Source of the DNA: an uncultured virus (IMG/VR IMGVR_UViG_3300028805_000004) | Lineage: Duplodnaviria; Heunggongvirae; Uroviricota; Caudoviricetes | IMG/VR virus record: IMGVR_UViG_3300028805_000004 | Reading direction: 5' to 3' (one strand) | Length of the DNA: 20,000 nucleotides | Part shown: positions 6,037-19,932 of the stretch, in pieces | Layout of the letters: each line of letters starts with the position of its first letter | Position numbering within the stretch: the first letter of the stretch is position 1 | The notes under the pieces: generated by a model | The model's database searches: none | The model's input: the letters and a program-made list of their open reading frames with translations, nothing else | Told to the model about the DNA's origin: nothing | Made by a program: the position numbers and the translations under genes

Positions 6037-7962
6037 TTACTGCTTGGTAACATAGATCGCACTGTACGGCTTGGTCAGCATGCCAGAGCACCGGCCCTCA
6101 AGCAGGTAGGAATACTGGTTGTAGTCCATATCGAACTTGTCGAAGCTGGTGATCTCGCCGCCGGCATTGGTGCCCACAGTGTAGTCCTTGAGGTTCAGGA
6201 TCAGGAGACCGAAATTCGCCGGAACGACTTCCTTCGGAATACGGACGATGCGGGTAACACCGAACGCATCTGCGATCTCGCTCTGATTCTTATACAGACG
6301 ATAACCCTGGCCGTCCTTCATGAGTCTGTAGTCAGCCAGCTGACCTTCGGTCATGAAGCACACCGTGGAACCGGAGCCCTTGTAGTCTTCGAATGCGCGG
6401 ACAGCAGTCTCAAGCATCTCATCAGCAACCTCGTACCGGGTCTTATTGCCGACAGTAACAGACTTCTTGATGGTCCAGAAGTTATCGTCGGAAATGATCG
6501 GATGGATAGAGCCCTCGTCGATCTTGTCCGGGGAAGTAGCGTCACGGCCGTCACCGAAGACGATTGCACGTGCCAGCTCTTCATTCAGCATCTTTCTCAT
6601 CTCTTTCCAGAGCCATGCGATGATGTTGAAGTTCTTGATCCGGATGATGGTCTCACGATCAAGCTTCTGGCGCTTGTAGAACATGCAGGCATCCGTGGAT
6701 CTCCGCATGAGCTTGAAGACTTCTTCCTTCTTCAGGTTGCCCTTAATATAACCACGGGCACGGGCCTCATCTTCGGTAATATCAGCCCACATGGATCTGA
6801 ACTTCTCGAACGGGACATGAGAAACACCGCCGAGAACAACCGAAACCCACTCATCATCACGAGCGATAAGCATCGGCTCCTGATTGAGGTTGTGATCCTC
6901 CGGGAACAGGTAGTCGATGTTCTCGACACCGTAGGAGTCATGCTGAAGAGCTCTGCCATTGCGGCCATCCGGGAAGAATACGGTAAGATCATTCTGTTCT
7001 CTGAACTCATCGCCATAGTCGCCATGAGCCAGGGCCATGGAAACGGCCTTCTTGAACGTGCCGGCAGCCCTCAGGTTGGTGTCATCGAAAATATCATGCT
7101 CAAGAGACTGTCTCGTCTCGATGAAAGCATCAAGGGAAAGAACGCCCTGACCACCGGCGCCCTGCTCAAACGGATTGTACTGCATGTACTCATCACCTCC
7201 AAAATCGTCATGTTCGGCTTCATCGCCGTCGTCTTCATCTTCGTCATCATCGTCAACCTGCTTCTTGATCTCGGAAGCATGGTCAACAGCATACTCAAGA
7301 GCCTGATAGAAGGCCGCCTGCTGCTCCTCATTCATGGTTGCGATAATGTCGTCGAGGGACTTTTTACCCTCAGTCTGTTTTTCAGCCACTGGCTTTTCCT
7401 CCTTTGGCTCGTCGGCATGCTCAATGACAGGCTCGACGGTGGGCTCGAGAGTGTCTTTGGCGAAGACCGAATGCTCGAGCGCGTTGTTATAGAAATAAAA
7501 ATCCCCAGACTCATCATCCGGGGTATAAGATCCATCAGCATGCTGGATTGACGGATACTCGATATAAGCGCCCTCGTTTGCGCCGGCAAGAACAAGGCTT
7601 ACCTCTCGGATGTTACCGTGGTAAACGTTTCCACCGGATTCACGGAGCTGGTTGGCATAGATAGAAAGTGCTGTAACAACACCTTCTTCGATAAGCCCTT
7701 TGGCTTTCTGTCCATCAGCGCTGTGACTCAGAAGGCCATACATGTACATACCTTCCGGCCGACTTTCAAGAAGACCCTTGCCGACTACAGCGTCGAGGTC
7801 TTTGTGGTTATGCTGATAGACGATCGGGACGATCTTGCCGTTGCAGTCGTCAAATGCGCTCTGCTTAATGGTTCGACCATCCGCACACTTAATGTTGAAA
7901 CGTGTTGCCCACCCAGCGAAATCATAGTTTGTCGCTGAGGGGTTCTTATACACATCCCCCAT
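6037..7962 (-). CDS. Prohead protease - scaffold - major capsid protein fusion (641 aa)
   Basis: GAGGAGG (7971-7977) precedes ATG 7960-7962. The N-terminus is an HK97-type prohead protease (FAGWATRFN...IVYQHNH...ALSI...IREVSLVLAGANEGA, with candidate catalytic His/Ser/Glu). It is followed by an acidic linker (DDDDEDEDDGDE) and a ~300-aa HK97-fold capsid region (EELARAIVFGDG; KDYTVGT; FDMDYNQYSYLLEGR). Confidence 0.92.
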   Translation of the reverse strand: MGDVYKNPSATNYDFAGWATRFNIKCADGRTIKQSAFDDCNGKIVPIVYQHNHKDLDAVVGKGLLESRPEGMYMYGLLSHSADGQKAKGLIEEGVVTALSIYANQLRESGGNVYHGNIREVSLVLAGANEGAYIEYPSIQHADGSYTPDDESGDFYFYNNALEHSVFAKDTLEPTVEPVIEHADEPKEEKPVAEKQTEGKKSLDDIIATMNEEQQAAFYQALEYAVDHASEIKKQVDDDDEDEDDGDEAEHDDFGGDEYMQYNPFEQGAGGQGVLSLDAFIETRQSLEHDIFDDTNLRAAGTFKKAVSMALAHGDYGDEFREQNDLTVFFPDGRNGRALQHDSYGVENIDYLFPEDHNLNQEPMLIARDDEWVSVVLGGVSHVPFEKFRSMWADITEDEARARGYIKGNLKKEEVFKLMRRSTDACMFYKRQKLDRETIIRIKNFNIIAWLWKEMRKMLNEELARAIVFGDGRDATSPDKIDEGSIHPIISDDNFWTIKKSVTVGNKTRYEVADEMLETAVRAFEDYKGSGSTVCFMTEGQLADYRLMKDGQGYRLYKNQSEIADAFGVTRIVRIPKEVVPANFGLLILNLKDYTVGTNAGGEITSFDKFDMDYNQYSYLLEGRCSGMLTKPYSAIYVTKQ

Positions 7963-7978: not shown

Positions 7979-9214
7979 CTACTGTTTTTCAACAGGTTCT
8001 TCCTCCTGGGCTGGAGGTTGTTTCTGAGCTTCAGCTTCTGCCGACTGGTTGATGTTCTTGTTTCTCAGTTCATCAGCACCAGGATCCTTAGAAGGAACAA
8101 GACCAAGAATCTGCCTGAACTCGTTAGAAGACATAATCTCATTACGAGTAAGCTTATCCGCAAGGTCTGCAAGCTGAGTTGTCGGAACGAGCTTGAACGG
8201 TTCCCTAAAGAAAAGAATAGACTGCCTCTGAGTACGAGCGGTCTTACTAAGGAACTTCCATCTCATACTATCACAGATAGCTGAAACGAAAGGTTCAAGT
8301 ATTCGGTTCTGGTATTCGAGTTTCTGGTCGTCAGTGGCAGTACCATCAAGGATAGCCTGAGAAAAGCCAATCTGACTGAATACCTGGTTTGTGAAGTACT
8401 CAACCTGTGAAAGCATCTTGTTTTCAATGGCTCGGTTGAGCTGGATGACATGCTCAGTTCCGTCGATGTATGCTACACCGTATTCGGAATCGGCAAGCTG
8501 CGATTTGAGGTCGTCTCTACGCTGCTTTGCCCTTGCCTGCTGAAGCTCTGTGCGTGCACTATAGGGTACCTGGATGATAAGATCAAGCTTATTGGATGCC
8601 GATTGTTCGTCAATCGTATCAAGCAAGTCGAGTTTCCTAATTAGACGCTGCAATGTGGAATTGTACTCATTCATCACAGAATATAACGGATTCTCAACGA
8701 TTGCCGTGATGGATTTGGGAACAACAATCTCCTCAAACTCACACTTATCTTCGTTGTACACACGCACTCTTATGTGTTCTGGAAACCATTCCAGAATCTT
8801 GCCAACCTTCAAGGCCTGAATATCAAAGGATGTCGTCTCTGGATTGAAGTCTGCCCTTGTGATAACAATAGCAACTACTCCTTCATCCATCATAGACATG
8901 ACAACATCCTTGATGAACGCTCTACCTGTCTGATCCCGGTTGGCATTTAAAGTCAGACAGTTGTTAAGACCAGAGTTGATCGGTTCCAGGAATCTATTGT
9001 TTTCGTCCAAACGGACGTGTTTTATAGAAATCTGAGACACGTCAACCGCGATTCTGGTCATAAACGATGCAAGAATAGAGCGCTGGTTCTCTCTTTTCAG
9101 GCGAATTCGATCCGGTCGAGAACCACCTCCGTATCCGCCACGTGAAATATAAGGCGTCGGGTCGCGGCCCAAGAAAGCATTCCACGCATGTTGTAGTCTT
9201 TCACCAAAACCCAT
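7979..9214 (-). CDS. Portal protein (411 aa; start moved from the ORF-track 9448 to ATG 9214)
   Basis: AGGAGGT (9223-9229) precedes ATG 9212-9214 (MGFGERLQHAWNAF). It has HK97-family portal features (RIAVDVSQI, L...ANRDQTG..F, IMSSNEFRQILGLVP) and lies directly upstream of the protease gene. Confidence 0.9.
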   Translation of the reverse strand: MGFGERLQHAWNAFLGRDPTPYISRGGYGGGSRPDRIRLKRENQRSILASFMTRIAVDVSQISIKHVRLDENNRFLEPINSGLNNCLTLNANRDQTGRAFIKDVVMSMMDEGVVAIVITRADFNPETTSFDIQALKVGKILEWFPEHIRVRVYNEDKCEFEEIVVPKSITAIVENPLYSVMNEYNSTLQRLIRKLDLLDTIDEQSASNKLDLIIQVPYSARTELQQARAKQRRDDLKSQLADSEYGVAYIDGTEHVIQLNRAIENKMLSQVEYFTNQVFSQIGFSQAILDGTATDDQKLEYQNRILEPFVSAICDSMRWKFLSKTARTQRQSILFFREPFKLVPTTQLADLADKLTRNEIMSSNEFRQILGLVPSKDPGADELRNKNINQSAEAEAQKQPPAQEEEPVEKQ

Positions 9215-9227
9215 TGTGGGGTACCTC

Positions 9228-9938
9228 CTAGTTATACCTAGAAGTAGACGTACGTCTGTTCCTGCGCCTACTACCGTCACCGTCTTCATAACTTGTGCTG
9301 TACTGTTTTCGGATAGTACCACCATTTCCGTAGTTGGTGACATTATTATTAACAGTATGTTCTGCTTCTTTATACTGAGCTTTATACTTTGTACCCTGGA
9401 TCTCAGATGTACTGATACGGTACACGCCAGCGGCTGCGGCAAGAACATTTATGGCAAAGTTGGCAATCTTTTCGCCCCTTGTTCGAGTGCTTCTGTACGT
9501 GTCTTTTGCAGTTACGTCGATCTTTAGCTTTTTACAAGCATCAGCAATTTCAGCCTGTCTTCCATAAGTTTTAAGGGTCTTCTCGTCCCACATTTCTTGG
9601 ACGTCCTTTAACTTGGCGCGTCTTTTCTGCTGCTTAGCAAGAACTTTTTCAGCTTTTTCGTGTTTTCCGGCCTTGCGCAATCTGTCAACACGAGCGTCAA
9701 GATTAGATAACTCGTTACGAGCCATGATTCCGTGAGCTCTGGAAACAGCCAACGCTTTATCGTTTTTGTTCAACTCACGAGTAAAACGTCTGGCCTGTCG
9801 TTTCAAGCCAGCGGTCGTGAGTGTTCCGTCCTCGTTCTGATATCTTCTTACGCCCCACTTCTGACCCTTTACTCCATGGTGGGCAAGGTATACATCATAT
9901 GCGAAAATATCAGAGGACAGTAATACTGATGTACTCAT
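9228..9938 (-). CDS. HHGxKGxKWG-motif protein (236 aa), basic, putative virion cargo
   Basis: It starts at ATG 9936-9938 (ATGA overlap with the upstream stop, preceded by GGGAGGAG). It has an N-terminal YLAHHGVKGQKWGVRRYQNEDGTLT, a Lys/Arg-rich helical body and one hydrophobic stretch (IANFAINVLAAAAGVY). I recall this motif family as DUF7211 but could not verify it. Confidence 0.8.
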   Translation of the reverse strand: MSTSVLLSSDIFAYDVYLAHHGVKGQKWGVRRYQNEDGTLTTAGLKRQARRFTRELNKNDKALAVSRAHGIMARNELSNLDARVDRLRKAGKHEKAEKVLAKQQKRRAKLKDVQEMWDEKTLKTYGRQAEIADACKKLKIDVTAKDTYRSTRTRGEKIANFAINVLAAAAGVYRISTSEIQGTKYKAQYKEAEHTVNNNVTNYGNGGTIRKQYSTSYEDGDGSRRRNRRTSTSRYN

Positions 9939-10165
9939 TGCTCCTCCCATTTCTTGATCGTTCGATTTCTGACAGCGTCACTATACTTTTTAAGGTCAGA
10001 CATCGGTGAGAAATATCCAACAGTGCCAGTTCTTTTGTCAACACCGTACATGCCCATATGAGTGGTAACAACAAAGTGCGAATTATTGTAGTCTATAAGA
10101 CTGATCGGGTTTAGTTTCGGATAGACAGCTTTAAATCGCTGTATGGCTTTTTCTGATGTAAGCAT
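9935..10165 (-). CDS. Putative immunity protein (Imm35/YrhB-like, 76 aa)
   Basis: It is translationally coupled (TAATG overlap at 10163-10167) to the toxin-tipped polyprotein. The pattern MLTxExA...(beta strands)...YGVDKRTGTV resembles Imm35/PepSY-like proteins. Confidence 0.55.
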   Translation of the reverse strand: MLTSEKAIQRFKAVYPKLNPISLIDYNNSHFVVTTHMGMYGVDKRTGTVGYFSPMSDLKKYSDAVRNRTIKKWEEQ

Positions 10166-13100
10166 TAGTGCACCACCTCTTTAATTTTCTCAGGATCAAA
10201 GTCGACATTGTCCAATCGGGCATACTGAATATTGTTAGCAACAGCCACAACGTTCATTGTATCCATTTTCATGTTGGCTTGTCCGTCATAAACATAGGCT
10301 ACACCATCGACGACTTCATAAGCCATGCTATGTCCGCCACCGCCATCCCAGGTAACCATCAGATTTCCTCGAGCACCGTCTCCTTGAGCTACGAGTTCTT
10401 TCTGGAGCTGCTCATTTACCTCTTGCTTGTACTGCTTTTGTGAGTCTTCAGAATATTTATGAACATACTTACGCTCAAGTTTTTCTGTATCAAGATGTTT
10501 TACCTTGGCGTCAGGATACCATCTTGTAACATCGCCATAATCATAACCAAACTGAACTTCGTTAGCCGTTACATCATAACCACGACGTCTCATGTCATAT
10601 GTGGCCGTACAGCACATGCAGTTATGCTTAGTATTTGTAGCAAGGTTCTTCCAACCTGGATTTACATCTTTAAGATCTTCTTCTCGCGAAGCATTAGTAT
10701 TCTGTTTAAGATGCAGTCCAGTTTCTTCGTCTACTGGTTCACCCTGTTTTCTCTTTTCAGCTTTCGATTTTGCCATTTCTGCAGATATAACGTCCTTGAC
10801 AAAGATTACAGGATCAGCAACCGCTGAAAGGTTAGAGGAGAAAAGCGCATTGACAACTGCTGATACACCATTGGCTATTCCCTCACTGTAGCTAACCTTC
10901 TTTCTTTGAGTTTGCTGGAAATTGAACATTGCCGTCTTAAGATCTGATCCGCTTGTTTTTTCTACGGTTTCTGTCAGCCTTCTCAGATGCACATCCATTG
11001 GTAAACTATCGTCAAATTCGTAACCAAAAGCATCAGCAAGCTCTTTTACTTCCTCTTCAGACATCATTCCACGATTAAGAAATAGTACTAATGAGGCTTT
11101 CTGGTCATTCAAGGTTACTTCATCTTCTTTACTAACATCTTCCCAGCCATCAATAGATCCGCCTCCTCCACCTCCTTGGACTTCAAACTCCATAGATTTG
11201 GCGTTTATCTTAAGCTTGGAAGTTACCTTATCGCGAAGCTCTGCTGCATGCTTTTTGCCAGCAGAAGTCAATCGACCGGCTTCGTCCTGAAACCTTCTTA
11301 TGCCCCACTTCTGACCTTTGATGCCGTGGTGTTCGAGAGCATTATCATCGGCAAATATAACAGCATGAGCAATCTGTTCCAGCCGATACTTGTCACGTGT
11401 GCCTGCTGACGCAGCCTTACCCATTGCTACGCCCATTGGTATGGAGGCAATGTTAGGAAGACCAGCAACTGACGAAGCAAGCGTTGTAGCTACACCAGCT
11501 AATACCGCTTTGCCAATAGCTTTGGTTCGTACAGCTCTGTGTTCATTGTAAATATCATCAACAGTCATCTTTACAAGATGGTCTGCTAACTTTTCGTACA
11601 TTTGCTTCGTGTTCGTTTGCCCACGTGCTATAGCCCTATCGATGTTTTTATCGTAACGCTTCAGCTCCTTCTCTCGAAATTTTTCAGCCTTTTCGTTACG
11701 CCGCAATCCAGCTTTTGTAAGTGTTCCATCTTCATTCTGAAACCGTCTAATACCCCACTTCTGACCTTTTATACCGTGGTGGGCTAGGTAGTTGTTATAA
11801 ACAGAGAGGTCTGAATGATTAATATAATACTCCTCAGCCCGTCTGAAAAAGTCTTCAGCCTGACGTTTTTGCCACAATGCTTTTTGTTCTTCTTGTTCGT
11901 ATCTATTATCAAGAGCTTTTAGTTTCTTGGCTTTATCGGAATCAGAAGGCAGTTTTCGAAGCGCTTTTGCTACTTTTACTCGAAGCGGTGATACTCGAGA
12001 CAAAATCTCGTCAGCTTCAGAAACATTTTTTTGCGCTTTACGAACACCCCTCTCCATTTCTGCTGCATCTAATCTTGCCTTACGTTTTGTAGTTTTAGCA
12101 GCTTTTTTAGCAGCACGAGTTTGCTTTAAAGTATCAAGGTCAAAATCCTGTGGAGTGCCTTTGTAGTCTTTCATGAATTGCCTCATGGATCTGAGACTTT
12201 TTATCATAGAGTCTACATCAGCATCTGTTCTTGCCGCTTTTCCAAGATCTTTTTTCATCTCTTCATAGCGTTTCTCCATATGGGCTTCGAGTTCTGCTCG
12301 TTTCGTATCTGCTTTTGCTTTTTTCTCGACGGGTTGTTCAGAAACTTTTGATTCTGCGTTCTCCTGACCCTTGGACTTATCTGACTTTTTAGTTCGCTCT
12401 TCTAAGTAGTCAAGTCTTGCATTACGAGCGTCATCTTTCTGCTTTTTCATAGCATACTCGTAAGCTTCAGGATTCGTCTGCTTCACAAAGTCGGAGTCGT
12501 ACTTTTTCCCATTAAGCTCTATGGTGTTACCACCACCATTGTTGGGCCCATCCGGATCATTTGGCTTAGTAGATGCTGAAGGCTTGTCAGGATCACCCTT
12601 TTGGTTCTTTGCATCAACTGTGTATTTGCTAATGCGCTCACGAGATTCACGATCAAGTTGATCTTTCTCGCGCTTGTAGTCGATGTCACGCTCAGCAGAA
12701 AGTTTATCTTTCTCAAGAGCTCTCTGATGATCACGCTCTTCTTTCTCGAGCTGACGCTGATACTTGAGTTCGTCGGCAGCTTTCTGCTTACGTTCTTTCT
12801 CGCCAGAAATATCCTCAATGTAATCCTTGGTGTCCTTGATAGCACCAGTTACATCACGGATAGCCTGGAAATATCCAACACCTCGCTTAACCTGCTCAGC
12901 AAAGCCTTTGGCGGCTCTATCGCGTTCGTCGAGTCGATTGTTGGCCTCTCTAAGCTCTTCGACAGTGAACTTGTCAGCATTCATGGTCAGGCCGAGACGA
13001 GTTTTAGCCCAAACCTTCTTCTGGCGCTCAAGCTTCTCGGCAGCTTTACGAGCTTTTACCTCTTTAGCCTTCTGGATTCCGCCACGCGCAGCCTTCACAA

Positions 13101-14169
13101 GACCCACACCGACCTTACGTCCGGCGGACATGGCGCTTTTAATACCATAGCGCTTGGCTCCAGCAGCAGTCAGACTTCCGTCAGCTTTCTGGAACCGTCT
13201 CACACCCCACTTCTGACCCTTGATTCCATGATGAGCCAGATAGGATCTGTAAGAATAAATATCATCATTTACAATCACTGAATGACTAACCTCCTCGCCT
13301 TGCAGCATACTTCGAGCTTCTTTACTGTATTTGTCGAGATCCGACTTCATTCTTTTAAGTTCATTGTCGGTGTACAAGTGTACTGAAGATGTATAGTCAA
13401 TTGCGTTAGTGGTTTTACCAACACTCCGCAAAGCGGATTCTGTTACATATTCCTCTAAGATAGCGCCAGCATACCCGCCGTCTCTTGATGTCGATATGTA
13501 TTTCTCAGCCTGATTACCCAAAGCCTCATCAGAGATTTTCCTAGAAAAATCTTGCAATGTAGACAGCGCTTTATCATAGTCAGACCTAACACGGTTTGGA
13601 TTTTTACCATTAGCAACAAGGCAATAATCGTATGAATTGTATGAACCATCATCCGCAAGGTTTTTAGGTCCCTGCCTATATGCTTCGACAATTCGTTCTT
13701 TAGTCCAACCTTTTATAGTCCGACGATCGGCTTCTGCAAGGCCTGCCACTGTACGATAAAAATCAACATTTTTTTCATAGTCTTCAGCACAAACGCTGCC
13801 AGCTTTTTTAACGCTCATGGCGAGAGATTCGATTTTATCGGCAGTAGCTGTATCTCTTGTGATGACATTGTCTACTAAATTGTCAATTTTATTTTTAACC
13901 CTGTCAAAGTCATTAGCCCGACGATTATTAGCATCTACTTGCCTAGCTTTTGCGGGATTCAGAAATCGTTCTTTAAAAGAGAGTTGCTGGTATTCAGGCC
14001 GATCGCCAAACCTATCAGATGCCTTGAATATCTTCTTTACTATCTTGTAGTTCTTTTTGGTGTTACTTAAAGGATCTTTAATTCTTGTCCCATCGTAATT
14101 CTGGAACCTTCTTACACCCCACTTCTGACCTTTGATGCCGTGGTGGGCTAAATATGTTGTGTAGCTCAT
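10165..14169 (-). CDS. Modular polyprotein (1334 aa) with four HHGIKGQKWG repeats and a C-terminal papain-fold toxin-like (Tox-PL/glutamine deamidase) domain
   Basis: AGGAGG (14176-14181) lies 6 nt before ATG 14167-14169. Repeats start at about aa 6, 310, 794 and 944. The C-terminal domain reads VNP...NCMCC...RRRGYDVTA...GDGARGNLMVTW..GGHS......G.AYVYDGQ, with Cys at 10618-10620, His at 10330-10332 and Asp at 10285-10287. Confidence 0.8.
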   Translation of the reverse strand: MSYTTYLAHHGIKGQKWGVRRFQNYDGTRIKDPLSNTKKNYKIVKKIFKASDRFGDRPEYQQLSFKERFLNPAKARQVDANNRRANDFDRVKNKIDNLVDNVITRDTATADKIESLAMSVKKAGSVCAEDYEKNVDFYRTVAGLAEADRRTIKGWTKERIVEAYRQGPKNLADDGSYNSYDYCLVANGKNPNRVRSDYDKALSTLQDFSRKISDEALGNQAEKYISTSRDGGYAGAILEEYVTESALRSVGKTTNAIDYTSSVHLYTDNELKRMKSDLDKYSKEARSMLQGEEVSHSVIVNDDIYSYRSYLAHHGIKGQKWGVRRFQKADGSLTAAGAKRYGIKSAMSAGRKVGVGLVKAARGGIQKAKEVKARKAAEKLERQKKVWAKTRLGLTMNADKFTVEELREANNRLDERDRAAKGFAEQVKRGVGYFQAIRDVTGAIKDTKDYIEDISGEKERKQKAADELKYQRQLEKEERDHQRALEKDKLSAERDIDYKREKDQLDRESRERISKYTVDAKNQKGDPDKPSASTKPNDPDGPNNGGGNTIELNGKKYDSDFVKQTNPEAYEYAMKKQKDDARNARLDYLEERTKKSDKSKGQENAESKVSEQPVEKKAKADTKRAELEAHMEKRYEEMKKDLGKAARTDADVDSMIKSLRSMRQFMKDYKGTPQDFDLDTLKQTRAAKKAAKTTKRKARLDAAEMERGVRKAQKNVSEADEILSRVSPLRVKVAKALRKLPSDSDKAKKLKALDNRYEQEEQKALWQKRQAEDFFRRAEEYYINHSDLSVYNNYLAHHGIKGQKWGIRRFQNEDGTLTKAGLRRNEKAEKFREKELKRYDKNIDRAIARGQTNTKQMYEKLADHLVKMTVDDIYNEHRAVRTKAIGKAVLAGVATTLASSVAGLPNIASIPMGVAMGKAASAGTRDKYRLEQIAHAVIFADDNALEHHGIKGQKWGIRRFQDEAGRLTSAGKKHAAELRDKVTSKLKINAKSMEFEVQGGGGGGSIDGWEDVSKEDEVTLNDQKASLVLFLNRGMMSEEEVKELADAFGYEFDDSLPMDVHLRRLTETVEKTSGSDLKTAMFNFQQTQRKKVSYSEGIANGVSAVVNALFSSNLSAVADPVIFVKDVISAEMAKSKAEKRKQGEPVDEETGLHLKQNTNASREEDLKDVNPGWKNLATNTKHNCMCCTATYDMRRRGYDVTANEVQFGYDYGDVTRWYPDAKVKHLDTEKLERKYVHKYSEDSQKQYKQEVNEQLQKELVAQGDGARGNLMVTWDGGGGHSMAYEVVDGVAYVYDGQANMKMDTMNVVAVANNIQYARLDNVDFDPEKIKEVVH

Positions 14170-14192
14170 ACAAGCCCTCCTGCTTTTGGTGC

Positions 14193-14741
14193 TCACATGC
14201 TCAAGCCATGATTGCTCAGATAGTTCTGGTATGCAGAAATATCAGAATGCTTTACATCCTTACCTGCATGGCCATCATTGGTAATCTTTGCATCCTGGAA
14301 ACTGACTGTAACGTGTTTCCTAAAGTATTCTTCCTGTTTCTTTTTCTTTTTCTTGTATCTTTCTAACGACTTGGCAGCCTTCTTTGTGGCTTTCTGTAAA
14401 CGTTTGTGATTTTTGTCTATTTCGCGCTGCTTCTTTTGCAGCTTCATCAAGGATCCAACGCCTTTAAGCACTTCTTTAGAGGAATTGGCAACGTTTTCCC
14501 AATTTACTTTTTCTCCTCTTTTCAACGGGAAGTAAATTTCATCAGCAATACCTTCTCGCCAGCCTTCATCTATATCGGCCTTTAAATCTTCTATTGTTTC
14601 ACCATCTTCATTAGTCAAAGGTTTACCACCTCCGCCGCCTTGTCCTTCAAATTTGACAGACTTGGCATCGCTGGCATCTTTATGATGTCCCCACTTCATG
14701 CCTTTTACGCCATGGTGGGCAAGATAAGCTCCGTAACCCAT
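14193..14741 (-). CDS. HHGxKGxKWG-motif protein (182 aa; start moved to ATG 14741)
   Basis: GAGGTG overlaps the terL stop and precedes ATG 14739-14741. The sequence is MGYGAYLAHHGVKGMKWGHHK, then a poly-Gly linker, a Lys-rich helix, and a degenerate copy of the junction motif at the C-terminus. Confidence 0.8.
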   Translation of the reverse strand: MGYGAYLAHHGVKGMKWGHHKDASDAKSVKFEGQGGGGGKPLTNEDGETIEDLKADIDEGWREGIADEIYFPLKRGEKVNWENVANSSKEVLKGVGSLMKLQKKQREIDKNHKRLQKATKKAAKSLERYKKKKKKQEEYFRKHVTVSFQDAKITNDGHAGKDVKHSDISAYQNYLSNHGLSM

Positions 14742-14748
14742 AAGCACC

Positions 14749-16497
14749 TCACTCAAACATGTCAATGTTCTGTCTATAGGCAACCCATGCATCCATCAAG
14801 GCCGATACATTATCGATCTTGTCAGCATAACGCTTCTTCCAAAGCTTACGGTTGCCATTGGTATCTTCAAGAACCATGGCATTGCCCATAGTCATACTCA
14901 TTAGTTCCTCATCAAAGAGCAGCATGCGCTCACTGGCAAGTTTCTTCAACTCACCGAGCGGAACTGACTCTGTCTTTACTCCCTGGATTACCTTAACAAC
15001 TCCAAACTCGCCTCGATCTTGAATATAACGAGCAACAAACTCCTTAGCATTATACGGGTCGTAGCCCATGCAGAGAACGTCGTACTGTTGGTCTTCCATA
15101 AACTGGTCGAGGTCGTCGTAAACGTCCATCATGTTGAGGACTGTTCCTTCAAATACGACGAGACTGCCTTCATCCATGAACTGACGATACTTGTCCCTTG
15201 CTGCCGGCTGTAGCCTTTCATAAGTTAACGAAGAAATATAACTTCGAACCTTGATTCCGAACTTCCCGTTCTTCAACGGGAACAAGAAGGTGGCTGCACA
15301 GAAGTCGTCACCTTGAGATAAGTCCAAACCAAGAGCACACGGCATCTTCCAATAGCTCCGTTTCCGATGTGGCTGTATCTCAGCATACGTGAAGTAGTAG
15401 GTGAGCCCCTCCATCGGTATCCCGAAACGCTTGGCAAGAATATCGTTGCGAGCAGACGGAACGTTTTCAGCTCTTTCGACGTCGAGCTGGTAGGTTTCCC
15501 AGGAAACTGTCTTTCCGAGATTCGGATTAGCTTTGAGCCACATGTCAGGATCGTTGACTTCCGAAACATCGTCAAGACGGTAATACCAAATGGACACATG
15601 CGGTGCATAATAGTCACCTCGAAGGATGTCCATTAACTCCATTTTGATTGAGTCTCCAGCTCCGTTACGAACACAACCCTCAGAGCTAGAAGCGATGATG
15701 ATGTAGTCGTCCAATCCACCCTTTCGAGCACCCTGTTCAAGAGCACCGACCGGATCTTCTCGCAGAACACCAGAGAGCCACTCGTCTACTGTGGAATACT
15801 TCACTCGTAATCCCTGAAGCTTGTCAATGACCATCGGTCTGATCTCAAGAAGGGAGTTTGTGAGAAGATTCTCGATACCCTTTTTGGTACTGGCAAGCTT
15901 TGGACGGTTCATCTTGGAACCAGTGGTGTTCTGCATCGAGCCATTGGTCAGAAATCTGAAGAATGGTCCTCGTGACTTGGTGATGGAGGTCTTGAATGGA
16001 GACAAAACCTCCTCGGACTGTTTCATCGTTGGTGCAGTTGTGACCTGATGAGTTGTCGACGGGTCTACTGTCAAGCCGAATGCCTGAATGCAGAAGTCGT
16101 ACATACTCTTAGCCGCTCCTCGAGCAACAATCAGATACTGCTTTGTTGTCAGACGCTTCTTGACTGTCCGAACAACGTAACGAACTCCGTGTCCGTTAGG
16201 GTCTGGCTCCGGTACCGGCTGTCTTACAAAGTAATACCAACCATAGAGCTGTTCGGCCCAAAGCTTAAAGCTGTCCAACAAGAAGAGAGGCTGACCGTCG
16301 GTTAAGGTAAGTTCGTTTTCACAGAACTCAACCCAGCCGTCGATAGCCTCATCATCGTAAAAGTATTTTGGATTGGCTATGAGAGCGTCAATCCTATTCA
16401 TCTCCATAGAGATTTCTTCATTGACCGGTATCTCCCCCCGAAGAACCTGATCACGAAACTCTTTGTAGTATTTCGGGGTAGCTCGATTTGAAAGCAT
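14749..16497 (-). CDS. terL: Terminase large subunit
   Basis: 582 aa with Walker A 'LIVARGAAKS', Walker B 'YSTVDE', coupling motif 'IASSSEG', and RNase H-fold nuclease motifs 'LGLDLSQGDD', 'YDPYNA' and 'KIDNVSALMDA'. Confidence 0.95.
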   Translation of the reverse strand: MLSNRATPKYYKEFRDQVLRGEIPVNEEISMEMNRIDALIANPKYFYDDEAIDGWVEFCENELTLTDGQPLFLLDSFKLWAEQLYGWYYFVRQPVPEPDPNGHGVRYVVRTVKKRLTTKQYLIVARGAAKSMYDFCIQAFGLTVDPSTTHQVTTAPTMKQSEEVLSPFKTSITKSRGPFFRFLTNGSMQNTTGSKMNRPKLASTKKGIENLLTNSLLEIRPMVIDKLQGLRVKYSTVDEWLSGVLREDPVGALEQGARKGGLDDYIIIASSSEGCVRNGAGDSIKMELMDILRGDYYAPHVSIWYYRLDDVSEVNDPDMWLKANPNLGKTVSWETYQLDVERAENVPSARNDILAKRFGIPMEGLTYYFTYAEIQPHRKRSYWKMPCALGLDLSQGDDFCAATFLFPLKNGKFGIKVRSYISSLTYERLQPAARDKYRQFMDEGSLVVFEGTVLNMMDVYDDLDQFMEDQQYDVLCMGYDPYNAKEFVARYIQDRGEFGVVKVIQGVKTESVPLGELKKLASERMLLFDEELMSMTMGNAMVLEDTNGNRKLWKKRYADKIDNVSALMDAWVAYRQNIDMFE

Positions 16498-17790: not shown

Positions 17791-19932
17791 TTACTTAAGA
17801 AGCTTAAATATCTCGATGTCTGACAGCCAGGCATCACCGAGTGCGTTCTTGAGACCGTCGCCAAAGTGACCAGGATACTCAACGCCCTTTGGATCAAGCC
17901 CCTTGCAGTAAGCAATGATCTGAACAGCTGTGACGACATACTGTGTTTCACCCTTACGAATGTAATGGCCTTCAAAAGCCTTACGTGTAAGCGGACCAAG
18001 ATCTCCGTCTTCCTTAAGACCAGAACCCCAGTCAAGGTTTGCAGCATGCTGAAGACATCTCACCATCTGGCGGTTGGTATTACTCCCTCGAATGCCATCA
18101 AGCTCGATCTTGAAACCTGTGAACTTGACGGATTCGGTCTGTCCCTTGAACACCAACTCCTGAATGGGTGTGAGCTTCTTGGCCGGCTTGACGTAATGGA
18201 AACGAACTCCGTAACCGAACTTCCGCCCATAGTCTCTCCAAGCCGGTTCAATGAACTCTGATCTGTAGGGCTGCTCTCTCTGGATCTTGGAATCCATTCC
18301 GAAATCCCATTTTGAAATTACCGGAGCGTAATCGGACGCCATAACAAACGTATGGAACGTCGGATCACCAGGAGCTGCAATGATGACGATGTCACCAGCC
18401 TGAAGATCTTCCTTGCGATCAATCTTGTCAGCTACACCGAGATTGACAAGCTTGATGAAGTCCTTGGTAAGGTCTCCATGACTTCCACCGAGGTCAGCTC
18501 GCTGCCTGGTCCATCCGAGATTATACATTGCAGCTGAGGCAAGTCTGTCACAAGACCACTCGGAAGTTCTGCCAATCGGGAAACACTTGTTGTCACCGTA
18601 CAGGTTGATTCCTTTGGACCCATGCGGATCGAGACTGAAGGCATAGTCCGCTACAGCGTCGAGCTCCTTAAGCCACTGCTCCTTGGTGAACGGGATTGCA
18701 GTAAGCCGCTGACCCTTCATGTGGAACACGTAGTCCTCGATAAGCTTAAGGCTGGTCTTCGGTCCGAACTCACCGTCAACTTCAAGCTTCCCTCGCCAAC
18801 CCTTCTGGTACTCACGGACAGCAAGCATCGAGAGTCCGCCGTAGTCACCATCAAGGTTTCCGGTGTACCAGCCAAGGACACGCAAGCACTGCTGCATCTC
18901 TCTGACTGTGAGCTGATACCGGCTGCCGGAAACAAGAACGATGACAGTATGACCCTTGGTCTTGGTTACGAGAATATCACCTCGAGCCAGCTCTTCCTGG
19001 GACTTCACGTAAACCTGGTCGAAGTAGCCACTGTTGGAAAGGGCAGACGGTTCGTCACCAGTGTAGAAGTCTTTGATGTCGATGCCAGAATATTTGATGC
19101 AGCATCTGACAAGACGAGCGCAGTCGGTCTCACAGGGCGTCGTGACCTTAGAGAGATCGAAGTCTACTTTCTTGGCTACGGAATATAAGCTCTGGTTGTT
19201 GGACTGGTCGTAACCAATGTTGTCGTTGGCACAAGCAGCCTCCATGGCTTCAGCAATGAGCTCTCGTACGAAGACAGACTTGGCTCTGAATATGAACCAG
19301 CCCTTGGGATGATCGTAGTAGGGCTGGGTTGAAACCTCGCGACCATTGTTGTCTCCGGCCTGTCCGCCAGAAATGTTGCCGTTCTCGTCAATGCGAGCTG
19401 ATCCGATCGTAACCATTGTATGTACTCCTATGTCATACTGTGTGAGATTAAACTCGTTGATGATCCTCATTACTGAAGAAACATAGGTTGGGCCGGTAGC
19501 ATAGCCACGCTGGCTAACCTGAGTGATTAAAGCTCGAGGATCTGTAATCTTCAGCACATCACGATACTTGTAATGCCCTCCAGTCTTAGCATCTCGCATG
19601 AACTGAAGATAGTCATAAAAGCAATCATCCAGAGTTCTATACTTGCGGAAAGAATCCCAAATGGTTGTTGGCACTCCGTTGTAAACCTCAGGGGTGTATT
19701 TCTCAACTGTATCACCATGCCAGAACTCTGACTTCCAGGTTGAATTGAGAAGCTCTGTCTTCATTCCAAGGCAGTTGTTAGCCTGGGAATATAGTTCACT
19801 GCCTGAACCAGTACCGAAACCAGGTTCTAGACAGGCCTGGGCAATGAGAACCGACGGCAAATAACCGCTAAATCGTAGACAAGCAGCAACAGCTAAAGGT
19901 GCTACAAGCTGCACGTATCCATCTCGTGTCAT
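17791..19932 (-). CDS. Multi-domain endolysin (GH73 glucosaminidase + two NlpC/P60/CHAP-like peptidase domains + peptidoglycan-binding domains)
   Basis: 713 aa, RBS AAGGAG at 19939-19944. GH73 motifs: PSVLIAQACLE.GFG, ANNCLGMK, FRKY, GYAT. Peptidase 1: IGYDQ, TDC, GDILV, GHT. PG_binding_1: MQQCL..LGW..G.LDGDYG...AVREYQ....LEVDGEFGPKT. Peptidase 2: YGD, SCD, LQAGDIV, HTF. The C-terminus has DG..G..T repeats. Confidence 0.88.
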   Translation of the reverse strand: MTRDGYVQLVAPLAVAACLRFSGYLPSVLIAQACLEPGFGTGSGSELYSQANNCLGMKTELLNSTWKSEFWHGDTVEKYTPEVYNGVPTTIWDSFRKYRTLDDCFYDYLQFMRDAKTGGHYKYRDVLKITDPRALITQVSQRGYATGPTYVSSVMRIINEFNLTQYDIGVHTMVTIGSARIDENGNISGGQAGDNNGREVSTQPYYDHPKGWFIFRAKSVFVRELIAEAMEAACANDNIGYDQSNNQSLYSVAKKVDFDLSKVTTPCETDCARLVRCCIKYSGIDIKDFYTGDEPSALSNSGYFDQVYVKSQEELARGDILVTKTKGHTVIVLVSGSRYQLTVREMQQCLRVLGWYTGNLDGDYGGLSMLAVREYQKGWRGKLEVDGEFGPKTSLKLIEDYVFHMKGQRLTAIPFTKEQWLKELDAVADYAFSLDPHGSKGINLYGDNKCFPIGRTSEWSCDRLASAAMYNLGWTRQRADLGGSHGDLTKDFIKLVNLGVADKIDRKEDLQAGDIVIIAAPGDPTFHTFVMASDYAPVISKWDFGMDSKIQREQPYRSEFIEPAWRDYGRKFGYGVRFHYVKPAKKLTPIQELVFKGQTESVKFTGFKIELDGIRGSNTNRQMVRCLQHAANLDWGSGLKEDGDLGPLTRKAFEGHYIRKGETQYVVTAVQIIAYCKGLDPKGVEYPGHFGDGLKNALGDAWLSDIEIFKLLK

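Follow-up and report, generated by a model that had tools for sequence, protein, structure and literature searches.

Introduction

Papain-fold Tox-PL1 domains (Pfam PF15644) were predicted in 2012, and the literature we found describes them computationally only. Their fusion to MuF in phage head modules is already known, as are MuF toxins with small downstream open reading frames (ORFs); Jamet et al. 2017 (PMC5576092) report such an ORF after 89.4% of their 191 MuF toxin genes. For Imm35, Zhang et al. suggested a possible role as a protease inhibitor with specificity for Tox-PL1, and they noted fusions of the two (PMC3482391); in this literature the inhibition is still a prediction. PF15644 appears in PMC10318531 listed as a releasing peptidase or poison. 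Cpe1 and StbD have been reported as antibacterial papain-fold toxins that cut GyrB and ParE (PMC12136450; 10.64898/2026.05.07.723447), and polyvalent virion proteins have been published in PMC5512222, from whose main text the word 'papain' is absent. Here we analyse a 20,000-nucleotide stretch of DNA (the window; bases 44026-64025) of the 64,025-nucleotide uncultured virus record IMGVR_UViG_3300028805_000004 (Caudoviricetes), in which a 1334-amino-acid (aa) protein of the head operon carries four copies of a short tag, DUF7211, ends in a Tox-PL1 domain and is followed at once by a gene of 76 aa. We think it somewhat likelier than otherwise that this enzyme is an accessory, virion-delivered protease or deamidase, kept off in the producing cell by the small protein as its cognate inhibitor; packaging, target and toxicity are the parts that we infer.

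A papain-fold Tox-PL1 domain ends a multi-module head protein

The last ~175 aa of the 1334-aa protein match the Pfam family Gln_amidase/Tox-PL1 at 34 bits (E 7e-8), above the cut-off of 24.1. The motifs from which a papain-fold toxin domain had originally been predicted all lie where they were claimed to be: VNP at residue 1169, NCMCC (NCxxC) at 1183, RRRG (RxRG) at 1194, GARG at 1265, GH at 1279 and DGQ (DxQ) at 1295, with the triad Cys1184-His1280-Asp1295 intact. The family signature NC-H-DxQ is thus present as N1183-C1184, H1280 and D1295-x-Q1297; when the 175 aa were shuffled, an NC...GH...DxQ series with similar spacing arose in 19 of 20,000 cases.

A structure model of the domain, built from 100 relatives, reached a predicted local distance difference test (pLDDT) value of 95.8 and bears out the Tox-PL assignment. 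Its top row in the VIA comparison is SpvD (Z 11.5; root-mean-square deviation (rmsd) 2.5; 137 positions aligned), and the top rows are nearly all papain-like enzymes, among them YopQ (Z 10.1), C39 peptidases (9.4-9.6), staphopain (9.3), OspI (9.2), the pseudomurein endoisopeptidase PeiR (9.2), AvrPphB (8.8) and an antibacterial contact-dependent inhibition peptidase toxin, 8ssm (8.6). OspI is also the best match, at E 0.03, when the sequences of the PDB are searched with the papain profile. From the mix of fold neighbours we mildly prefer a protease to a deamidase. In 107 of 152 ORFs (not dereplicated) the papain domain ends at most 15 aa from the C-terminus, a position that Zhang et al., in their section 12, read as that of a toxin and not of a processing enzyme (PMC3482391).

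A dedicated small gene is coupled to the enzyme

The 76-aa ORF starts within the stop codon of the large gene (CAC-TAA-TG), is preceded by the ribosome site GAGGTGG and contains VDKRTG; its own stop overlaps the ATG of the next tagged gene. The stop-codon overlap (TAATG) and the motif had both been noted in the original prediction and are seen in the sequence, and its remark that this is the sole gene of the block without the HHG motif of the tag holds for the four genes between terminase and portal.

We built a hidden Markov model (HMM) of the small family, seeded from 97 small genes downstream of papain relatives with the window copy left out. It matches the 76-aa protein of the window at E 2e-15 and returns 161 matches among the 39,329 ORFs of the fetched loci: 140 directly after a papain gene, 10 that by position follow a papain gene near a contig end, 7 fused before papain (5 of them distinct) and 4 immediately upstream of a papain gene. 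Of 77 distinct tagged papain genes, 69 are followed by a small-family member, as against 1 of 224 tagged genes without papain, the one being a fused papain form, a count that is partly circular given how the HMM was seeded and in which related phages are not independent. When all papain ORFs with room downstream are taken, distant bacterial and MuF-type ones included, 141 of 218 are followed by a small-family match.

The reverse search, which starts from the small gene alone and rests on one subfamily (A4) other than the window's own, finds papain directly upstream in 29 of 32 loci, and in 14 of the 17 loci that were new to the analysis. Two of the exceptions begin at a contig edge and the third is an orphan. 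This reverse search is the cleaner of the two tests, and together they make the link to a dedicated partner much stronger than could be told from the sequence alone. The family comprises 1821 clusters (50% identity) at E <= 0.001 and 401 at 1e-10; a word-based search with the 76-aa protein returned 2 near-identical proteins only. Among its best 150 representatives, 1 has a signal-like start and 3 have the tag pattern. The 76-aa ORF is thus a real gene of an unnamed family that is almost always found beside the papain enzyme. Pairwise identities of enzyme and partner are correlated (rho 0.39, permuted maximum 0.10), which is expected from linkage and so is not evidence of co-evolution. In four Nocardia loci no small partner gene was seen.

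The position of the small gene varies: it may lie downstream or upstream of the enzyme gene or be fused to the next cargo. Five loci (L047:6238-7693, L078:670-2635, L084:1841-3182, L129:236-1661 and L134:5328-6678) have the small domain fused ahead of tag and papain domain in a zymogen-like arrangement, and in six others (L009, L010, P0106, P0158, P0173 and P0176) it forms, by fusion, the front part of the tagged cargo protein that comes next. The orphan (L245:2983-3234) lies just upstream of a tagged gene and terminase, in a locus with no papain match. Six loci (L045, L060, L080, L084, L116 and L168) have two divergent papain genes in a single head operon, in most cases with a small gene for each.

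The papain domain also stands under other labels in phage records. In mycobacteriophage Fameo (gp3/gp4; L006:1545-2674) a gene labelled 'VIP2-like toxin' has PF15644 as its one Pfam match (E 4e-13), so that the label looks wrong; the gene after it weakly resembles the small family (HH profile comparison, E 6e-4). The same papain domain is also met in several phage genes that carry the annotation 'capsid maturation protease' or MuF-like, among them gp5 of Arthrobacter phage Colucci (L007:1795-4092; MuF-like annotation), whose next small gene, gp6, carries VDKGTG.

The small protein is probably a PepSY-like relative of Imm35

The model of the small protein (pLDDT 79.5) consists of a helix, four strands and a helix. 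Its top VIA rows are 4exr (Z 6.6, a modest value below the clear level of 8; rmsd 1.9; 53 positions aligned), which we take to be a PepSY-type structure, YpmB (Z 6.3) and the C-terminal domain of YpeB (5.1), with the peptidase propeptides 3nqz and 4k90 lower among the rows. PepSY domains are propeptide parts of M4 and M36 peptidases. Against PepSY clusters the Atlas comparison gave TM values of 0.60-0.72, under the Atlas bar, and feature matches below 0.9. The Pfam PepSY model (PF03413) is matched at E <= 0.1 by 18 of 100 family members, at best with E 1.5e-7. In the other searches the window protein itself had no Pfam match, no NCBIfam family was common to more than one small-family member, a PDB sequence search with the family gave chance-like matches only, and Foldseek against viral models gave one match at E <= 0.001, an unnamed one.

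The small protein had been labelled Imm35-like, after the usual neighbour of Tox-PL1 in bacterial polymorphic toxins, and as family membership this label did not hold. None of 100 family members matches Pfam Imm35 (PF15567) at E <= 0.1, and the Trp that is invariant in 10 of 10 Imm35 members falls on a column that holds Y in 59, F in 29 and W in 6 of 100 family sequences, with Phe in the window protein; these two results rule out membership of Imm35, for which the table of Zhang et al. gives W and [ST] as conserved residues (PMC3482391). A more distant kinship is suggested by HH comparison of the small family with an Imm35 profile made from 10 sequences only (probability 52%, E 1.4e-4, 53 columns), in which the score of 25.0 compares with at most 10.6 in 30 column shuffles. 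The ten Imm35 sequences are true domains from 5 of 201 genomes searched, where they lie beside weak papain matches; five actinobacterial genomes with distant papain relatives gave no Imm35 match. The small family aligns with Imm35 along the core and sits beside Tox-PL1 as Imm35 does. We conclude that it is probably a PepSY-like sister family, distantly related to Imm35 and not a member of it, which would act in the manner predicted for Imm35.

The two proteins are predicted to bind

The structure prediction of the complex, proposed earlier as a check, gave 0.60 for enzyme and small protein as against 0.00 for the best of 3 controls, with runs that agree in at least 96% of contacts and a partner pLDDT of at least 86. 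The mark used is reached by 116 of 157 solved pairs and 2 of 215 mismatched pairs. At scores of 0.60 or below stand only 18 solved pairs and both mismatched pairs, and for this reason the support it lends to binding is weak; it also gave no interface. The specificity of the small protein for the papain enzyme comes from the genomics, to which the model adds a predicted contact. With the genomic coupling as prior, direct binding of the two proteins appears highly probable to us, and inhibition of the enzyme by the small protein is a good, if lesser, expectation.

The enzyme rides on a tagged carrier with exchangeable cargo

The 1334-aa protein is encoded by a single unbroken ORF that runs on the minus strand from 14169 (ATG, MSYTTY) to 10165. 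One assembly contig of depth 44 covers 9849-14800, so that the long frame is supported. The His residues of its four tags are at positions 9, 313, 797 and 947. Modules 1-4 have no credible Pfam match, and the protein has no Pfam match to MuF, in line with the original prediction that the carrier would be of another kind. Among the longer papain relatives DUF7211 is present in 65 of 99 and MuF (PF04233) in 1 of 99. One tag is the rule among tagged papain proteins (78 of 84), and a few close relatives have chains of 4 to 7.

The carrier is conserved and its cargo is exchangeable, with 224 tagged ORFs lacking papain as against 77 that have it. In one relative (P0004) the papain domain is 94% identical to that of the window, yet a GNAT module takes the place of module 1, and modules are therefore exchanged. 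P0008, L003 and L004 likewise combine a GNAT acetyltransferase module with the papain domain in one tagged protein. The enzyme is an accessory: tblastn finds the tag in 55 Gordonia and 46 Streptomyces phage records and the papain domain in 4 and 0, counts that include duplicates and can miss distant copies.

Several observations bear on a link of the tagged proteins with the phage head. Of the 87 distinct tagged papain genes in the fetched loci, 34 lie between terminase and portal and 11 upstream of both; a further 24 show one of these two or a different order, and for 18 neither is in view. The tag region matches PHROG 35934, 'virion structural protein', at E 6e-5. In Lactococcus phage 1706 a protein with two degenerate tags, orf7, bears the record annotation 'structural protein', which reportedly rests on virion mass spectrometry. 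The tag opens with a hydrophobic-x-His site. Such sites account for 10 of the 15 His residues of the protease-capsid fusion and 9 of the 24 of the cargo protein, compared with 0 of 4 in the terminase and 0 of the 2 that the small protein has; the signal is weak, since the tape measure fragment has 6 of its 9 His in sites of this kind.

Three further features of the tagged proteins were seen. The last three residues of the 1334-aa protein, V-V-H (10168-10176), themselves form a hydrophobic-x-His site, which falls at the border with the 76-aa gene. The upstream tagged gene (14193-14792) and module 4 (11241-11100) have in common a short post-tag stretch, AKS..FE.QGGGGG, which suggests a common origin. 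Outside the window, in the same genome (G000:C1:613-3399), a 928-aa ORF starts with a tag variant (LFHYGMPRRSGRYPWG).

Genome setting

The virus record has direct terminal repeats and is rated a complete genome. Sequencing runs that contain the window DNA are from sheep gut, which may be its source, and runs that contain its relatives are from goat gut. All head and tail genes of the window lie on the minus strand (Table 1), in the order endolysin, HNH, connector, terminase, the four-gene block, portal, protease-capsid fusion, tail genes and tape measure, an order similar to that of Lactococcus phage 1706 and the fetched Arthrobacter and Gordonia phages. The endolysin (17791-19932) has glucosaminidase, ELLD and peptidoglycan-binding domains. 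Promoter and terminator scans of the window were at chance level (11 vs 12.2 and 9 vs 7.1), and two RNA runs from one sample held short contigs only, none of which covers the papain domain or the 76-aa gene.

The complete genome has no match to PF00589 (tyrosine integrase) or PF07508 (serine recombinase), other routes to lysogeny not having been searched. An Oengus-like clade of gut phages that reaches to 1706 has been described as mostly virulent, with an integrase in 3 of 38 near-complete genomes (PMC9723715).

Table 1. Coordinates of the head-operon features in the window, with the basis of each assignment.
Feature	Position	Strand	Basis
Terminase large subunit, upstream border of block	14749..16497	-	domain matches
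Upstream tagged gene (DUF7211), between terminase and 1334-aa protein	14193..14792	-	Pfam
1334-aa multi-module cargo protein, with four tags (DUF7211), four unrelated modules and Tox-PL1 at its C-terminus	10165..14169	-	ORF and Pfam
DUF7211 tag 1 (LAHHGIKGQKWGVRRFQ)	14098..14151	-	sequence and Pfam
DUF7211 tag 2	13186..13239	-	sequence and Pfam
DUF7211 tag 3	11734..11787	-	sequence and Pfam
DUF7211 tag 4, heads the papain-bearing module	11284..11337	-	sequence and Pfam
Stretch of moderate hydrophobicity (aa ~1106-1124; mean hydropathy 1.34), after tag 4 and before the papain domain; many relatives are more hydrophobic here	10798..10854	-	
Papain-fold Tox-PL1 (PF15644) domain, aa ~1160-1334	10168..10692	-	Pfam over cut-off, structure model
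Catalytic Cys1184 codon	10618..10620	-	C in 100/100 aligned domains
Catalytic His1280 codon	10330..10332	-	H in 100/100 aligned domains
Catalytic Asp1295 codon (DxQ; Gln1297 at 10279-10281)	10285..10287	-	D 98/100, Q 100/100
Untagged PepSY-like protein of 76 aa, translationally coupled; predicted cognate inhibitor	9935..10165	-	family HMM, fold, coupling, complex prediction
Downstream tagged gene (DUF7211); ATG overlaps stop of 76-aa gene	9228..9935	-	Pfam and sequence
Portal protein, downstream border of block	7979..9214	-	domain matches
Head protease-capsid fusion	6037..7962	-	domain matches

A proposed mechanism and its alternatives

How might the pair work? Late in infection the coupled genes would be expressed together, and the inhibitor would bind the enzyme. 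The DUF7211 tag would load the cargo protein into the prohead, and the protease fused to the capsid protein may cut at hydrophobic-x-His sites, freeing the four modules. The untagged inhibitor would be left outside, or be cleaved away in the fused forms, leaving an enzyme that is active only after ejection; in those forms the inhibitor is divided from the enzyme by the tag and by hydrophobic-x-His sites, so that the head protease could separate the two. Having entered a new cell, the enzyme would cleave or deamidate a cytoplasmic or membrane protein of the host. The benefit could be early takeover or counter-defence, which fits better than killing on behalf of a lysogen because no integrase was found in the complete genome; competitor killing, one of the roles first envisaged, is weakened by the same result where a lysogen would do it, as has been proposed for MuF toxins.

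Several observations weigh against an injected, inhibitor-controlled enzyme. Foldseek finds no match for the papain model in the PDB at E <= 0.001 (9l5u stands at E 0.09), and on the partner's side there are the missing Pfam match and the modest Z. To these come the partly circular forward count, the annotation-based structural label in phage 1706 and the weakness of the hydrophobic-x-His signal. Fused inhibitor-enzyme forms would be packaged together unless cut. A helix with a hydropathy of at least 1.6 precedes the enzyme in 35 of 84 tagged papain proteins, compared with 33 of 224 other cargo proteins. Finally, Zhang et al. proposed a processing role for Tox-PL1 of phage heads (PMC3482391).

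That proposal, made in section 12 for MuF-fused Tox-PL1, leads to the alternative that survives best, although we consider it improbable: the papain domain would cut the polyprotein to which it belongs, or other cargo of the head, at the stage of assembly or ejection, with the timing set by the small protein. The window protein does have four modules to separate, and StbD, a toxin of related fold, processes itself (10.64898/2026.05.07.723447). Yet the great majority of tagged papain proteins, being single-tagged, have nothing else to free, and most tag-bearing cultured phage records have no papain match. Moreover, module borders share the hydrophobic-x-His site with the capsid precursor, which has its own protease, and the orphan inhibitor gene is better explained by protection from a foreign enzyme.

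Somewhat less probable again is a late toxin-antitoxin module that acts inside the infected cell, in host shut-off or phage exclusion, and is not carried by the virion. The gene layout is that of such a pair, with tandem (L045, L060, L168) and orphan (L245) copies, and that the tag means packaging is itself something we infer. What speaks against it is that the enzyme is tagged and the inhibitor mostly is not (3 of the best 150 representatives), that terminase or portal is present in the fetched locus for 69 of 87 tagged papain genes, and that a tagged protein is annotated as structural in phage 1706.

We give no higher standing to an envelope-acting enzyme, anchored by a helix and cutting peptides of the wall or of membrane proteins for DNA entry, whose producer the small protein would protect or which it would chaperone. 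The hydrophobic helix ahead of the enzyme, which in 62 of 84 tagged papain proteins reaches a hydropathy of at least 1.2 and in 35 of 84, as given above, one of at least 1.6, could point to a membrane or envelope role; PeiR is among the fold neighbours, and the PepSY protein YpeB is described as keeping a cortex-lytic enzyme inactive (10.64898/2026.06.01.729290). In the window, however, the helix has a hydropathy of just 1.34. Among the fold neighbours PeiR is equalled or exceeded by secreted effectors and C39 peptidases, while amidase effector and endolysin rows (4bi3, 3vpi, 8tw1) reach Z 5.6-5.8 only, and the papain protein of the window has no CHAP or NlpC/P60 Pfam match. The rarity of signal-like starts in the small family (1 of 150) means that the small protein would act in the cytoplasm.

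That the small protein is merely a folding or packaging chaperone, a split-off propeptide of an enzyme harmless to the host, is very unlikely: PepSY is the propeptide part of M4 and M36 peptidases, propeptide structures are among the VIA rows and five distinct loci have the small domain fused N-terminally to the enzyme, but an orphan small gene exists without any enzyme, gene order varies and bacterial Tox-PL1 loci have an equivalent layout with Imm35.

Returning to the virion-delivered enzyme and its cognate inhibitor, we tentatively propose a more elaborate form of it, which is doubtful as a whole. Phages of the 1706 and Oengus-like kind would chain tagged cargo and inject the papain enzyme, and the PepSY-fold inhibitor would be a detachable propeptide, left behind where it is untagged or, in the fused forms, removed by cleavage at hydrophobic-x-His sites. 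Sorting during assembly would thus arm the enzyme, which would be live only in the new cell, and orphan inhibitors might shield the host from the enzyme of rival phages. If this is true, it would constitute a MuF-independent route of toxin delivery in lytic phages; it would also mean that a cysteine enzyme has an inhibitor of PepSY fold, a fold to which Imm35 would then belong as well. If the tag is confirmed, it would offer a means of loading proteins into the heads of phages of Gram-positive bacteria.

The pair is present in cultured phages with laboratory hosts, namely Arthrobacter phages Lewando (gp10/11) and Sporto (gp8/9) and Gordonia phages Secretariat (gp15/16) and Mossy (gp17/18), and the action of Tox-PL1, its inhibition by the partner and head loading by DUF7211 are therefore directly testable. 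Our literature search found no paper on DUF7211 or on a pair of enzyme and PepSY-type inhibitor, subscription journals and the supplements of Zhang 2012, Iyer 2017 and Jamet 2017, which might list such loci, lying outside its coverage; among the matches listed, none joined Imm35 and PepSY.

Comparison with known systems

Cpe1/Cpi1 and StbD/StbI resemble the present pair in joining a papain-fold enzyme to a small cognate partner, and the fold of our enzyme matches 8ssm and 9l5u. They differ in that StbD is a C39-family peptidase and Cpe1 is C39-like, both delivered by Gram-negative secretion, where the present enzyme has no C39 Pfam match at E <= 0.1 and is like C39 in fold only; Cpi1 is reported to have no structural homologue (PMC12136450), where the partner here is PepSY-like. 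Bacterial Tox-PL1/Imm35 pairs (PF15644/PF15567) have the same enzyme family, the NC-H-DxQ signature and a small partner directly downstream; delivery here would be by the virion, and not by a type VII or type VI secretion system or Rhs. With PepSY, YpeB and YpmB (PF03413) the small protein has in common the VDxxTG motif and, by its model, a fold of helix and four strands, but here it is a single cytoplasmic domain beside a cysteine enzyme. The known partners of PepSY domains are secreted metallopeptidases or wall hydrolases.

For the cargo of T4 heads we know of no inhibitor partner. The internal proteins and Alt of T4, with their capsid-targeting sequence (PMC5512222), resemble the present cargo in the short tag on unrelated proteins and in the loading into the head, trimming by the head protease and injection that we predict for it. 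The MuF toxins (PMC3482391, PMC5576092) likewise have a toxin-type C-terminal domain in a protein of the head-packaging module, followed by a small ORF. They have been described from temperate phages, whereas no integrase was found in this complete genome; and the carrier here is not MuF but a DUF7211 tag of ~25 aa, with up to 7 tagged modules per protein.

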